A stretch of DNA of 33,798 nt from a virus (Duplodnaviria > Caudoviricetes). Positions 8,427 through 15,960 of this stretch are shown here, one piece after another; positions within the stretch are counted from its first letter, which is position 1; each line of letters starts with the position of its first letter. The stretch spans positions 1 through 33,798 of IMG/VR virus record IMGVR_UViG_3300002092_000122; one strand, given 5' to 3'. A program made the position numbers and the translations under genes. Below the pieces are notes generated by a model, which saw nothing but the letters and a program-made list of their open reading frames with translations, was not told the origin of the DNA and searched no databases.

Positions 8427-8806
8427 TCTCTTGCCTTTCTTAGTTCATCCCTTAACTGAATAATTGTTTCAATAGCTACTGTATAAACATCAATCCATCT
8501 TTTAGGGTCAAAAGACTTTTGGCGTAATTCATGCACAACGGAATCTATTTCCTCAACCGTTAATTCACGCATAGGGTGGGTGTAGAGAGGTGTTACATAA
8601 TTTTCCACTTGTGAAGGTCTAACCTTTAGCCATATTTCACGAACCCTTTTTGAAATGAAATCCACTCCATTTTTGTGCATCCAAGCATCAGGCTCTTGCT
8701 TTTCCTCTGTTTGTGGGGTTTGCAATAATCCGTCAAAATCGTGGCATTGTGGCATTCCACCCATAGCGCAACTGCATAAATCTAATTCACATTTTTTCAT
8801 CTTCAT
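8423..8806 (-). CDS. hypothetical protein
   Basis: Cys-rich N-terminus and EPDAWM..TPLYTHP..ELT motif common in phage accessory proteins. Start probably near 8803-8806 by coupling to the upstream stop. Confidence 0.55.
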   Translation of the reverse strand: MKMKKCELDLCSCAMGGMPQCHDFDGLLQTPQTEEKQEPDAWMHKNGVDFISKRVREIWLKVRPSQVENYVTPLYTHPMRELTVEEIDSVVHELRQKSFDPKRWIDVYTVAIETIIQLRDELRKARE

Positions 8807-9450
8807 TCCTTTGGTGGCTCTCCACATATTCTTCTAAGCTGTGTTTCTTGCCCATCCCTAGCAGCCCTAGTAGCATCCCAAGCAGCATTAGCAGAAGCAT
8901 CCCTAGCATAATCAGCAGCAGCAACCCTAGCAGCAGCAGCCCCAACAACAACATACCTAGCATCAGCCCAAGCAGCATCAGCAGCACCCATAGCAGCCCC
9001 AACAGCATCAACAGCAGCCCTAGCATAATCAGCAGCAGCAGCATAAGCAGCCCAAGCAGCATCAGCCCAAGCAGAATCAGCATCAGCAGCAGCATAAGTA
9101 GCCCCAACAGCAGCAGCCCAAGCAACAACCCTAGCAGCAGTTAATTCTTCTTGAGTTGCGTTGCCGTTAGCGAATGCCTCAGACACATCCAATGCCTTAA
9201 TGCTTCTCTCGTCTTTCATTAAATGTTGAACCTGACGAGCGCACCAAACTGCAAACAAACGAATCTTTTTATCTTCGTTTTCTACGGCTCTAAGACACCA
9301 CAAAGCACCATCAAGACCATTAGAGTTTAAGATTGTGATGATTGAAAGTGGTTCGTCATCTGCTTTAGTTTTACCTAAATTTGCTAACAACTTTGACCAT
9401 CCTTGAGCGCATGGTGAGTGTTTGCGTATTTGATTTAATGTTGTGTTCAT
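8803..9450 (-). CDS. Ala-rich repeat protein (AAW/AAR/AAD repeats)
   Basis: AAGGAG RBS. Globular N-terminus (SPCAQGW..ALWCLR..RLFAVWCARQV) followed by ~95 aa of degenerate Ala repeats. Confidence 0.85.
   Translation of the reverse strand: MNTTLNQIRKHSPCAQGWSKLLANLGKTKADDEPLSIITILNSNGLDGALWCLRAVENEDKKIRLFAVWCARQVQHLMKDERSIKALDVSEAFANGNATQEELTAARVVAWAAAVGATYAAADADSAWADAAWAAYAAAADYARAAVDAVGAAMGAADAAWADARYVVVGAAAARVAAADYARDASANAAWDATRAARDGQETQLRRICGEPPKE
8855..9140. repeat. degenerate (AGC)n-based coding repeat tract
   Basis: AGC triplet runs, with an exact 23-nt repeat CCCTAGCATAATCAGCAGCAGCA at 8901-8923 and 9018-9040. Confidence 0.9.
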
Positions 9451-12730: not shown

Positions 12731-13019
12731 GATTAGCCCCAAATGGAATTTTTGAAAGATCGTCTAAATCTTCGGATTCTTTAGGTTCAAACCATTTAGC
12801 ATCTTTTCCGCATCCGGTTAGGTCCAGAGTACGGGCTAAACCGGCACTAATGGCAACCGGAATACCATTGACCATATCCATTGGGCGTAATGGTGATAAA
12901 CAGTTATCTACAACAGATTGATAATGGTGGGTTGATGTTGCCCCTATATTTACTTTACTTTCGTACTTTTGAAAGTGTTTGCAATTTACGCAAAACTTTA
13001 ATGGGGTTTGTTCTGACAT
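12720..13019 (-). CDS. Cys-containing hypothetical protein with acidic IPF motif
   Basis: FCVNCKHF..C..CGKDAKWFEPK. AAGGAG RBS. Confidence 0.75.
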   Translation of the reverse strand: MSEQTPLKFCVNCKHFQKYESKVNIGATSTHHYQSVVDNCLSPLRPMDMVNGIPVAISAGLARTLDLTGCGKDAKWFEPKESEDLDDLSKIPFGANHGN

Positions 13020-13063
13020 ATTGATACTCCTTTTGATAGTTAGGTTTGTTACTGCTAGATACC

Positions 13064-13092
13064 ACTTTACTACATTATATTGATTAGTGCAA
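13064..13092 (-). promoter_or_regulatory. sigma70-type early promoter
   Basis: TTGCAC-17-TAAAGT, immediately upstream of a TAGCAGTA..CCTAACTA leader. Confidence 0.6.
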
Positions 13093-13093
13093 T

Positions 13094-13246
13094 TTATTTA
13101 TTAGTTGTTGTATTTTTGCTATTTTCAAAAATAACCTGGTTGTGTTCATTAACGTGATACGGCTTACCCGTTTCTTTAGCCTGGATTAAACGCCTCTGTT
13201 CAAATATCCTAAACATTTCATACATTTTTTCCTGGTCTTGATTCAT
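13094..13246 (-). CDS. 50-aa hypothetical protein MNQDQEKMYEMFRIFEQRR...
   Basis: Translated by hand. ATGA-coupled to the DUF551 gene. Confidence 0.55.
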   Translation of the reverse strand: MNQDQEKMYEMFRIFEQRRLIQAKETGKPYHVNEHNQVIFENSKNTTTNK

Positions 13247-13515
13247 TCTTTATCTCTTTCGTCATAAAAACATTGTTCGTCTGCTTCTGCCAAAGTAATT
13301 GGCTCTTGAAGGTTATTTATTTCTTCCTTTGGTGGTTCAGGTAGTGGCATCCAATGGGTTACTTTGCATTGACCAAGAACGGGATATAACCAAGGACTTG
13401 CAAAAGTATTGTGAAACATATACTGCCCCATCACAATGTTCCTATCTTGCGTATAAAGTATTACTTCTGTATAGGCTTCAGGCAACCTACTCTTAACGCT
13501 GATCCAATTATTCAT
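13243..13515 (-). CDS. DUF551-family protein
   Basis: WISVKSRLPE...VTHWMPLPEPP signature. Confidence 0.9.
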   Translation of the reverse strand: MNNWISVKSRLPEAYTEVILYTQDRNIVMGQYMFHNTFASPWLYPVLGQCKVTHWMPLPEPPKEEINNLQEPITLAEADEQCFYDERDKE

Positions 13516-13587
13516 TTAGTACCTCCGTAGTTAGGGTTTTACTACTATACATCTAATCATACTACTCTATTAAAAAAAAGAAAATAC

Positions 13588-13776
13588 TTATTTAAAATCT
13601 TTTTTCATAAATTCAATAATTGCATGTACTACTTTTCCATAACCTTTACCGCTTTCTTTTAATTTGATCTTATCCCTAAAAACTTCCATTTTGTTATTGT
13701 GTCCATAAGCAATATGACCCGTATCAAAAAACCATGTTTTATGCTGACCTATTTGTTTAAAGGATATTACTTTCAT
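13588..13776 (-). CDS. hypothetical protein
   Basis: 62 aa, AAGGGGG RBS. Confidence 0.6.
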   Translation of the reverse strand: MKVISFKQIGQHKTWFFDTGHIAYGHNNKMEVFRDKIKLKESGKGYGKVVHAIIEFMKKDFK

Positions 13777-13789
13777 ATTGACCCCCTTA

Positions 13790-14170
13790 TATAGATTTAA
13801 TATTTTTCACCCAAAGACCCCCCTACCCCACAAATGGAATAGAGAGGGATAGGTTCTCACCCCCGTAAACGGGATAGTCATGCTACGGATTGATTACCGT
13901 ATGCCCCTAGTCTTGACTATGCGACCAGACCGCCGGATTATTCAGGAATTGCACCCTAGCTAGAATCAGCATACCGGCTACCCTTTTCTCCCACGCCATG
14001 AGGTTTACATGCTTATTATCGTATGGGGTACGATTGGGGGCTTAAGCAATAAAAAAAGGGCTTTAAGGATAGCTTTTGCTGAAACGGCTTACGAAATGCC
14101 TCTGATCTCATTTCATAAACCCAAAAACCATCCTTAAAACCCTTAATCGAGTGTTTCAGTCCTCAATAGC
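13790..14170 (-). ncRNA. putative ~380-nt structured RNA / leader
   Basis: No ORF of 60 aa or more. A 36-bp hairpin whose only non-Watson-Crick pairs are G-U on the - strand, several further stems, and an upstream promoter. Confidence 0.6.
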
Positions 14171-14173
14171 CAA

Positions 14174-14204
14174 ATTGTAATCGAAAACAATATAGGTTTG
14201 TCAA
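14174..14204 (-). promoter_or_regulatory. sigma70-type promoter for the structured RNA
   Basis: TTGACA-19-TACAAT (spacer longer than optimal). Confidence 0.5.
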
Positions 14205-14218
14205 TACTTTTTTAAAAT

Positions 14219-14243
14219 AAAAAAATAGCCCCTAGAAGGGGCT
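14219..14243 (-). terminator. intrinsic terminator
   Basis: AGCCCCT/AGGGGCT stem followed by a T run on the - strand, downstream of the first early genes. Confidence 0.75.
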
Positions 14244-14279
14244 TAAAAGGATTGGGTTACTTACCCCTTACCCAATGGG

Positions 14280-14372
14280 TTAAATTGCCATAGCGAGCCA
14301 AATAAGGGCAATTAGGGCAAACATGGAGAGAATCATTAAAAGTTTATCAAGTGGACTATCTTCTTTATACAT
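14280..14372 (-). CDS. 30-aa single-TM micro-protein MYKEDSPLDKLLMILSMFALIALIWLAMAI
   Basis: Translated by hand. GGGGAA RBS. Confidence 0.55.
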   Translation of the reverse strand: MYKEDSPLDKLLMILSMFALIALIWLAMAI

Positions 14373-14373
14373 A

Positions 14374-14565
14374 TCATTCCCCTAAGTGAATTTCATTAAC
14401 CAGAGCCTTAGCATGTACTTTTGCATCATTCAAGTTATCCCCTTTTAAGAGAATCTCATCCCCTCGAAAAAAGAGAAAAAACCCTTTTAAATGATCGTCA
14501 AATGTAACCGTACTAGGGATAGAATCAATGGCGCTTAATTCCGCTTGTTTGTAGTCTAGTGGCAT
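14374..14565 (-). CDS. hypothetical early protein
   Basis: 63 aa, tightly packed in the operon. Confidence 0.6.
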   Translation of the reverse strand: MPLDYKQAELSAIDSIPSTVTFDDHLKGFFLFFRGDEILLKGDNLNDAKVHAKALVNEIHLGE

Positions 14566-14567
14566 GA

Positions 14568-14795
14568 TTAACCCTTTTTAGCCATGTAAGCACAATAATG
14601 GATATACGCCCATTTATTTAAAAAATCACTAATATCCTGACCAATTTTTAATTGGTTTGTTTCCATAACAAAATTGGAGGATGCCGGACAAAAGTGCAAA
14701 TAATCAGTTTGAAAGCCGTCAGTAACGCACCAACCCGTATTATTTTTTCCTACTTGTAACCCGTTAGAAAATTGCTTAATCGTTTTCATAAACAA
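14568..14795 (-). CDS. hypothetical early protein
   Basis: 75 aa, tightly packed in the operon. Confidence 0.6.
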   Translation of the reverse strand: MFMKTIKQFSNGLQVGKNNTGWCVTDGFQTDYLHFCPASSNFVMETNQLKIGQDISDFLNKWAYIHYCAYMAKKG

Positions 14796-15004
14796 TACCT
14801 AACATTAACGCCAGCTTGTTTTTTGTAACCATTCCAGGCGGAATTTGCTCTAAAATTTGCAATTCTATAAACTTTTTTCCAATCTTGTATTTTTTCTTCC
14901 TGACAAAAATCATAAATAGCCCTTTTCTCATCTCCACAAAAATCCCTTGTATTGATAATTAGTTCTACGGCATTTTCAATAACTTTTTTCGATATATAAC
15001 TCAT
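14786..15004 (-). CDS. hypothetical early protein
   Basis: 72 aa, GGAGG RBS. Confidence 0.65.
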   Translation of the reverse strand: MSYISKKVIENAVELIINTRDFCGDEKRAIYDFCQEEKIQDWKKVYRIANFRANSAWNGYKKQAGVNVRYCL

Positions 15005-15036
15005 AAAATCCTCCGATTAGTTAGGTTAAGACTTGC

Positions 15037-15090
15037 ACAATGCAATCCCTATAAATCACTCACTAGGAATGATCTATAAGACGGCATTGT
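15037..15090 (-). other. long intergenic RNA hairpin (RNase III site-like)
   Basis: ACAAUGC/GCAUUGU plus a 15-bp UCUUAUAGAUCAUUC/GAGUGAUUUAUAGGG stem with G-U pairs. No U-tract. Confidence 0.55.
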
Positions 15091-15960
15091 TTAAGCCGCT
15101 TTTTGATTGGTAATTGCATCCAATTCATTGATAAAATTGGCGGATTTTTGGGCTAAAGCGGCGGCATTAAATATCGCCTTATTATCTTCTTTTAGGCACT
15201 TTAACCATGAGGCGATATAGTTGCTATGTTGCAATTCCCCTTGAATGCCATAATCAGCACAAAGAAAAGCCGCCCCCATTTCAGCAACCAATTCCTCAAA
15301 AGCATAGGCGGTATCAGCAAAGCGCTTACCCTTGGTACGATCTAGCCTATGTTTTGCACCAGACCAATGGGTTAACTCATGCAACAACGTGCCGTAATAA
15401 TGGGATTCAGTTAAGAACGTTTCTTTTTCCGGCATCGTGATTGAATCGGTAGATGGCATGTAAAACGCTCTACCCCCGCCATGTTTGATATTGGCGCCCG
15501 TTTTAATAACCCGATCTTCCAGAGCCGGTACAGGGTTAAATTCAGCAATGATCGGTTTTGGTTTTTCAATTTCAATACCATCAACCTGATCTATATTGAA
15601 AACATAGTACGTCTTGAGTAGGTTGTACGCTAATAATTCAGGGTGCGTATCGGTTGCTTTAATCTCTTTTTTAGCGACTTTAGAGTAGAAAACGACTTGA
15701 GTGCCTTTTTCGCCCTTTTTAACAGTCCCGCCTAAATCTTCCCATTGTTTGTAACTAGCCCAAATCGGTTGAGAATATCCAGACATTCCTAGAATCAGTC
15801 TGTTAATACCCTGATAGGGTTTTTTACTAATGGCGTTCTTATCTTCATTAGAGCCACCCACCCAAGGCTTTATCCAAGGTGTTACCCCTTTTTCCAATTG
15901 TTCGATAATCCGATTAGTAACGCTATCGTAAACGTTAGGTCTTACTTGATTCTTTTCCAT
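15091..15960 (-). CDS. ardC: ArdC-family antirestriction protein (ssDNA-binding domain plus zincin metallopeptidase)
   Basis: IIEQLEKGVTPWIKPW, YQGIN, W.SYKQW, VKKGEKG, VFN, LLHELTHW and YAFEELVAE. Confidence 0.9.
   Translation of the reverse strand: MEKNQVRPNVYDSVTNRIIEQLEKGVTPWIKPWVGGSNEDKNAISKKPYQGINRLILGMSGYSQPIWASYKQWEDLGGTVKKGEKGTQVVFYSKVAKKEIKATDTHPELLAYNLLKTYYVFNIDQVDGIEIEKPKPIIAEFNPVPALEDRVIKTGANIKHGGGRAFYMPSTDSITMPEKETFLTESHYYGTLLHELTHWSGAKHRLDRTKGKRFADTAYAFEELVAEMGAAFLCADYGIQGELQHSNYIASWLKCLKEDNKAIFNAAALAQKSANFINELDAITNQKAA

Follow-up and report, generated by a model that had tools for sequence, protein, structure and literature searches.

For IsrK of Salmonella Gifsy-1, as described in the sections of PMC4825925 that concern it, a single promoter drives both a short, terminated transcript and a read-through isoform, and the former competes in trans with its copy in cis. 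According to excerpts of PMC3035462, the MRB plasmids carry an ORF-free unit of about 400-500 bp which encodes two RNAs, a short one that is terminated and a longer one that is structured, and in the IncI, IncB and IncK systems, as covered in portions of PMC10724649, a pseudoknot is set against Inc RNA, one recognition loop having a partner in cis and a competing partner in trans. The locus described here belongs to a conserved phage leader which is predicted to consist of a 5' hairpin and a long hairpin ending in a U-tract, with a bulge that matches the loop of the 5' hairpin. Judging from the comparisons given below, this leader is real, strongly selected and uncatalogued in Rfam: the covariance models of Rfam 15 gave no match in the window (best score 22.7 bits, below the gathering threshold) and no match to the leader or to the type A cassette behind it in 20 + 20 relatives.

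The window, i.e., the whole stretch of DNA that was analysed, is an entire contig of 33.8 kb from a tailed phage, the ORFs of which match terminase, portal, capsid, holin, RecE/RecT, RusA and ArdC in PHROGs and Pfam. The 43 ORFs compared with PHROGs and the 25 compared with Pfam included no recognisable initiator, primase, helicase, polymerase or integrase, and no terminal repeat was found in the 33.8 kb. Among annotated phages, the nearest relatives come from Manatee Spring, are uncultured and have a capsid identity of 88-90%, and relatives with capsids this similar measure 34-36 kb. The leader lies in an ORF-poor gap of the early region on the minus strand, which is headed by an ArdC-like anti-restriction gene (15091-15960, minus strand). 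Elsewhere on the same strand, a 215-aa protein (phrog_18326, 8803-9450) has an Ala/Trp/Asp-rich repeat as its C-terminal half.

Read along the minus strand, to which all the following coordinates refer, the unit is preceded by an intrinsic-terminator-like hairpin at 14217..14243, the only terminator-like site found by a standard scan of 13000-15200, which would insulate it from the small genes upstream. Next comes a predicted sigma70-type promoter at 14174..14204 (TTGACA at 14204-14199, TACAAT at 14179-14174) with a spacer of 19 nt, which a standard promoter scan admitting only spacers of 16-18 nt did not list. Transcription is predicted to start near 14167, at the foot of a 5' hairpin, P1 (14146..14167), which has a 6-bp stem and a 10-nt loop, and the loop contains the heptamer CUGAAAC (14153..14159), hereafter the code, in which position 2 is U and position 4 a purine. 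The long terminator-like hairpin that follows (14056..14144) comprises a lower stem in which 14144-14122 pairs with 14078-14056 (23 bp, three of them G-U), an upper stem in which 14121-14109 pairs with 14098-14086 (13 bp, two of them G-U), and an apical loop at 14108-14099; both stems had been proposed in the first-pass annotation and were confirmed with zero mismatches. The same applies to the bulge GUUUCAG (14079..14085), which is located 21 nt above the U-tract and is the exact complement of the code, and to the run of the hairpin into seven U (14051..14057), the first two of which pair with the base of the stem. This tract is the predicted termination site, and the product would be about 115 nt long.

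Two further statements of the first-pass annotation stood only in part. The code does lie near the predicted transcript start, but it sits in the 10-nt loop of P1 and is not a free 5' end. Because the complement of the bulge is thus found in the loop of a 6-bp 5' hairpin, the predicted contact between the two is a loop-bulge kiss. The five G-U pairs, which would be A-C on the other strand, had been taken to indicate selection at the level of RNA; they do identify the folding strand, but G-U pairs alone do not separate RNA from single-stranded DNA. The minus-strand fold has a predicted energy of -50 kcal/mol (z = -6.3), which none of 200 shuffles matched, compared to -28.5 kcal/mol (z = -3.0) for the plus-strand fold of the same region, and a perfect complement to the bulge appeared in 0.17% of 100,000 shuffles of the 23-nt leader. 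The long stem is missed by a standard terminator scan. The layout of an attenuator is present, with a G-C-closed hairpin and then a U-tract, the latter in part required by the detector, downstream of a promoter-like site.

To guard against circularity, relatives were gathered via anchors outside the leader and not via the kiss, in three sets that partly overlap and share contigs. With a motif 25 nt downstream of the leader as anchor, 120 viral loci were obtained, or 121 with the window, and a terminator-like stem was detectable in 80 of them, 74 of which are unique. In 68 of these 74 the bulge pairs with its own leader over at least 6 nt, and in 64 over at least 7 nt, as opposed to 12% and 4.4%, respectively, of cross pairs and 7.3% and 1.7% of shuffles; the 41 loci without a detected stem were excluded, and while many of them look like chance matches in coding sequence, some are true carriers (e.g., L146). 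The G-rich 3' end of the cassette as a second anchor gave 119 loci, among them 65 unique ones with enough upstream DNA, of which 62 have the stem; the kiss extends over at least 6 nt in 49 and over at least 7 nt in 46 of these (cross pairs 8%). With a neighbouring protein as the third anchor, 80 loci were found; 59, which were not deduplicated, have enough upstream DNA, 58 of these have the stem and 50 of the 58 a kiss of at least 7 nt; of the misses, six do show a 7-bp kiss, but with an arm of greater length. Taken together, a perfect 7-bp kiss is present in 123 of 144 unique leaders. These figures depend on the detector: the first version missed leaders with branched tops and found 28 of the 65 stems in the second set, compared to 62 with the better one, and in a first pattern scan for relatives only 4 of 90 loci were members. 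Between about 330 and 490 stored stretches are estimated to carry one cassette motif. The complementarity between bulge and 5' end, conservation of which had been named as decisive for the original proposal, is thus kept across the family with wholesale compensatory change, which supports that proposal. The 5' hairpin, the diversity of the codes, the fixed geometry and the exchangeable cassettes had escaped the first-pass annotation.

A subtype with two kisses (L480, L483, L484, L490, L514, L524, L529, L552 and related loci) has a shorter first kiss of only 4-5 bp and a further kiss in which the apical loop pairs with a second segment on the 5' side; this further kiss comprises 6 bp in 15 of 17 leaders and is varied in its letters. 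Relatives found via RecE (L095, 2830-3130; L121, 1135-1350; L122) have kissing leaders with other codes, followed by sequence unlike the cassettes A, C and Betaproteobacteria-1 described below. In L096, L099, L100, L102, L103, L106, L120 and L130 an imperfect AT-rich hairpin of about 45-54 bp lies upstream of a recE-like gene, where no kissing leader was detected.

The geometry of the leader varies within narrow limits in one part and widely in another. In 118 of the 123 leaders the bulge lies 18-23 nt, or about two helical turns, above the U-tract, and the part above the bulge ranges from 12 to 55 nt and is sometimes branched. Three leaders carry arms of 28-29 nt, i.e., some 8-9 nt longer, which hints at helical phasing. 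The spacer between code and stem mostly measures 10-17 or 22-30 nt. A promoter-like site and the U-tract (again partly required by the detector) flank the leader family-wide. Promoter scores of at least 10/12 were reached by 30 of 67 members as against 3% of shuffles; the promoter spacers are mostly 18-19 nt, and the promoter-like site ends 11-17 nt before the code. On the opposite strand a consensus scan revealed no promoter of at least 10/12 in any of 68 members, and that strand folds worse in 68 of 74 leaders. The stems are rich in G-U pairs (243 of 2296). The promoters of L140, L145, L152, L232 and others contain operator-like short inverted repeats, which overlap both the -35 box and the spacer of 18-19 nt.

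The 68 members contain 36 distinct 7-nt codes, the register having been set by hand for six members and extended for four 6-mers, and the 62 codes counted in the pooled 123 leaders may include register-shifted duplicates. Of the 64 codes registered automatically, 59 combine U at position 2 with a purine at position 4, compared to a background of 17%. Position 1 is G in 24 of the 36 codes and a pyrimidine in 10, the code of the window having C, and the pattern is therefore best described as U-N-R rather than the full YUNR, the pyrimidine before the U not being general; it resembles the YUNR recognition loop as presented in parts of PMC4737173. In 62 of 68 members the code falls within a predicted hairpin loop. 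Among 12 close relatives the stem of P1 is invariant and three of the seven kiss pairs change on both sides, a covariation score that none of 500 shuffles reached in a control which ignores relatedness, and in two subtypes of near relatives the code is paired at 7/7 positions in 20 of 21 and 27 of 27 leaders, respectively. Between the closest pairs the per-site divergence of the code is about two to three times that of the remaining leader (0.107 vs 0.036; 0.131 vs 0.063), although the pairs are not independent of one another, their bins were defined by the remaining sequence, and a similar difference could arise by recombination.

The structured region that had been supposed to follow the leader proved to be real and conserved, with 19 of 43 consensus pairs changed on both sides. 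In the window it is a type A cassette of about 230 nt with several covarying stems (13805..14032), and the first ORF 3' of it (13588..13776, minus strand, 62 aa) has no Pfam match. Within the conserved core of the cassette (14032-13988), 14027-14023 pairs with 13994-13990, and this helix covaries, being fully paired in 62 of 85 cases and paired at 4/5 positions in the other 23. The terminal hairpin (13848-13818) has a G-rich 3' arm and is followed by a conserved tail. Since it varies on the C/U side only in the consensus alignment, with the G-run fixed, a second role of the G-run is suggested, such as in an RNA:DNA hybrid; a second alignment, in which the G-run was the search anchor, has many U opposite G. 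Such a role has parallels in ColE1 and in the mitochondrial CSB2. Of 38 long carrier contigs chosen, 26 of which are at least 90% complete, 33 contain the core motif, 30 of these in single copy; three extra matches fall within the level of the reversed control, and the two Betaproteobacteria-1 genomes lack the motif. Optional insertions of 100-150 nt, some of them containing sequence that resembles a tRNA T-loop, were seen inside one stem of the cassette in L140, L157, L160, L175, L199 and L203, about 60-200 nt after the core motif.

The content of the slot behind the leader is exchangeable. In 59 near-identical phages it holds type A in 30, its variant A2 in 8, the orphan motif Betaproteobacteria-1 (RF02932) in 9 as assigned by motif, and type C in 10, two being unassigned. 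Rfam matches to RF02932 at 100-107 bits were obtained for L420, L470 and MW202545.1, with G022 also confirmed, and the motif stands directly behind a kissing leader in L420 (1618-1739), L470 (1935-2056) and L395, i.e., MW202545.1 (6135-6252). In MW202545.1 a tRNA cluster precedes the leader, and the region is annotated as a hypothetical protein. Type C cassettes, which have two alternative first hairpins, a common 3' part and no Rfam match, occur in L413, L445, L452, L462 and L398 and in L432, L437 and L468, about 150-450 nt after cro. Since the same codes are found with different cassettes among the 59 close relatives, and codes and cassettes reassort across the protein tree, the leader behaves as a portable module.

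We give an even chance to the view that the leader is a promoter-proximal attenuator in which the kiss hinders the zipping of the terminator and so sets the amount of the structured RNA of about 230 nt. The bulge would be transcribed before the lower 3' arm and would first pair with the U-turn-like loop; this kiss would close a ring around the 5' arm of about 21 nt, or two turns, and the 3' arm, tethered to the polymerase, would have to pass around this 5' arm twice, so that zipping would be delayed and some polymerases would read through. The topological block is proposed from helix geometry. When nascent prefixes were folded, the kiss was dominant in 71-81% of the 68 members at 0-4 nt of exposed 3' arm; its predicted occupancy was 15% at 14 nt and it was lost by 14-18 nt, in a nested model that cannot represent the pseudoknot or its topology. 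Equilibrium favours the terminator, the lower stem amounting to -32 kcal/mol and the kiss to about -6.5 to -8.7. No classical antiterminator helix was found, as the 3' arm pairs with its own downstream sequence (-17.5 kcal/mol) much as it does with that of other members (-17.2), and the 5' leader yielded no antiterminator pairing with the terminator arms either (-5.9 and -7.6). One candidate, pairing of the 3' arm with 13985-13975 in the window, is not shared across the family. With an early kiss predicted, and with neither a classical antiterminator nor a second downstream target nor an antisense promoter, a kinetic gate is the favoured reading.

Its main rival is that the kiss is a static contact, which we regard as doubtful although it has several points in its favour. 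The 7-nt contact may merely be a tertiary one in the finished RNA, compacting in cis the RNA of about 115 nt or the 5' domain of an ornate RNA of about 370 nt, or it may link copies head-to-side into self-specific oligomers, in either case with no tuning of termination. A static contact fits the constant arm length, and the few arms that are about 8-9 nt longer, equally well; given fraying or extension of P1, the spacer is long enough to bridge the lower stem; the second apical kiss of the two-kiss subtype is what a folded architecture would show; and self-specific assembly could favour diverse codes, too. ROOL, GOLLD and the pRNA of phi29 do multimerise via loop contacts. Against a static contact stand the terminator-like stem and U-tract kept right behind a promoter-like site, the free reassortment of the leader with four cassette types, hardly to be expected of one RNA with a tight fold, the conserved U-N-R, which points to fast recognition, and the kiss being the predicted state of nascent prefixes.

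If the attenuator is assumed to operate as proposed, the terminated RNA might in a second step act in trans and in a code-specific manner, a tentative suggestion that we hold to be possible. Transcripts that zip first would terminate as RNAs of about 115 nt with an exposed bulge, and these could occupy the loop of nascent transcripts of the same code and push them to termination, resulting in a negative feedback specific to the code when templates of the phage build up or a like phage enters the same cell. Such competition for the loop would explain both the U-turn-like loops and the fast-diverging codes. The third and weakest step, that the gated RNA serves the firing of an origin, is a dubious one.

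The gene context bears on this last step. A Cro-like gene is the immediate upstream neighbour in 33 of 121 loci, with recombination genes divergent, and in other lineages the unit adjoins genes for primase, helicase or ParB-like proteins. In the Cro group the similarity of a downstream protein of 127-138 aa to phage replication initiators is confined to their C-terminal half, and longer homologs often carry HTH_36 or other N-terminal domains. Neither a tyrosine integrase nor a family A polymerase was found in any of the 38 carrier records, and the C-terminal initiator half occurs in short ORFs of 15 of them, a count taken among carriers of the unit alone. Rather unlikely, in our estimate, but specific is the idea that these integrase-free phages start DNA replication from RNA instead of an origin-binding protein, with the leader as a single-promoter, bar-coded copy-number and incompatibility switch and the cassette as primer or R-loop. 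The kiss in cis would then allow read-through by means of the topological block and the terminated product would shut it off in trans, and the primer or R-loop would be formed by one of at least four exchangeable ornate RNAs, Betaproteobacteria-1 among them. The cassette would fill the post-cro slot that normally holds the DNA-binding half of the initiator together with iterons, and the C-terminal domain of the initiator would be left as a stand-alone gene. Counting against such an origin are a probable full initiator of 271 aa located 7 kb from the unit in G001, a C-terminal initiator half fused to a ribbon-helix-helix domain in G015, and separate HTH ORFs in three of the 38 records.

It is also improbable, yet worth considering, that the hairpin is the promoter-proximal terminator of an early protein operon, opened by a phage antitermination factor, with the kiss as a recognition or 5'-protection element. 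Such an arrangement would follow the logic of lambda pR'-6S-tR'. The next ORF lies on the same strand in 61 of 75 loci according to crude ORF calling, only 10 of these 61 have a strong promoter of their own, the window has no strong promoter between the cassette and the 62-aa ORF, and promoter spacers of 18-19 nt suggest regulated promoters. In the other 14 of the 75 loci, however, the next ORF is on the opposite strand, and therefore the only same-strand product there is RNA. Furthermore, a signal recognised by a protein should keep its letters, which the code does not, no match to the N or Q families was found among the 43 ORFs of the window, and a conserved RNA of about 230 nt always intervenes.

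Very unlikely, and largely disfavoured by the data, is prophage immunity of the P4 CI or P1 c4 type, in which a processed RNA pairs with targets on either side and silences the lytic operon. The single promoter, the same-strand complement upstream, the many specificity codes and the location after cro and next to replication genes would all fit, and IsrK, in the parts of PMC4825925 that treat it, offers the precedent of a short terminated RNA acting in trans on a read-through isoform. Yet a second target within 260 nt downstream is present in only 2 of 68 members, at the chance level of 2.7% given by cross pairs; the 38 records devoid of tyrosine integrase include the 26 that are at least 90% complete; 185,579 prokaryotic genomes yielded 23 pattern matches, of which only two short MAG contigs are real members; and there is no match to C4 or IsrK in Rfam. 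Most improbable of all is that the structures act as single-stranded DNA, e.g., as a hairpin origin recognised by primase or PriA. In favour of it, G-T wobbles are strand-specific in DNA as well and the element sits once per genome in a replication slot; against it stand the promoter-like site ending about 11-17 nt before the code, the U-tract after the stem, the G-U-rich stems, and the U-turn-like loops and kissing contacts, the last two being typical of RNA.

A search of the literature yielded no description of this family, although parts of it may appear in the supplementary material of PMC5737381 and PMC10690425; the main text of the former contains no description of RF02932, and a motif search of part of the supplements of the latter returned nothing. 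Compared with GenBank phages, the leader region of the window itself gave short chance matches only, and relatives used as queries partly matched a total of four uncultured spring phages. The unit is present in hundreds of viral contigs, and where relatives are annotated the region is called a 'hypothetical protein'. If the proposed gate is true, it would constitute a natural attenuator with dozens of orthogonal 7-nt codes and no separate antisense gene, a kinetic or topological switch, and it would provide Betaproteobacteria-1 with a context and a testable role. If the origin reading is true, it would explain the replication of phages without a recognisable initiator, primase or polymerase, the phage of the window included.

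Among the known systems, the c4 RNA of P1 and P7 bears the same likeness to the leader as does the CI RNA of P4. For the latter, with its seqA and seqC, the likeness as far as set out in parts of PMC4825925 consists in an RNA from the same strand whose exposed bulge complements the 5' leader, in termination as the proposed output and in a specificity that varies between relatives. Unlike both, the leader has no second downstream target (seqC, a2/b2), no cloverleaf and no Rfam C4 match, its bulge forms part of the terminator, and neither the 38 records searched for tyrosine integrase nor the comparisons with prokaryotic genomes and plasmids gave a sign of lysogeny. RNA I and RNA II of ColE1 form an RNA-based replicon of the same layout as the MRB plasmids. 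Small loop differences could define compatibility groups in the MRB plasmids, according to portions of PMC3035462, which is a further likeness to the leader unit. RNA I of the MRB and ColE1 replicons is, however, an antisense RNA from the opposite strand, whereas both partners of the leader are encoded on one strand, with an opposite-strand promoter in 0 of 68 members, and a comparison with plasmid sequences gave no match to the unit. The switch of IncI, IncB and IncK differs as well in that, in the parts of PMC10724649 dealing with it, it controls the translation of rep and employs a separate antisense RNA; two leaders, L151 and L161, carry the loop start UUGGCG that is named in reference titles of the same source. 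Betaproteobacteria-1 occupies the cassette slot behind the leader in relatives, but the RF02932 model is without the leader, and the cassette of the window is a different one with no Rfam match.

With IsrK, to judge from what parts of PMC4825925 report, the leader is proposed to have a common layout of one promoter with a short terminated and a read-through RNA, but IsrK activates the translation of orf45-anrP, whereas the next product behind the leader is a structured non-coding RNA. The leader differs from it, too, in that pairing takes place via a 7-nt loop-bulge code within the leader itself, in the lack of an Rfam IsrK match and in its carriers, 38 records of which yielded no tyrosine integrase. 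Although the leader fails the tested defining features of the P4 CI and ColE1 types, it would, by analogy, work like IsrK, P4 CI and the RNA-controlled replicons.
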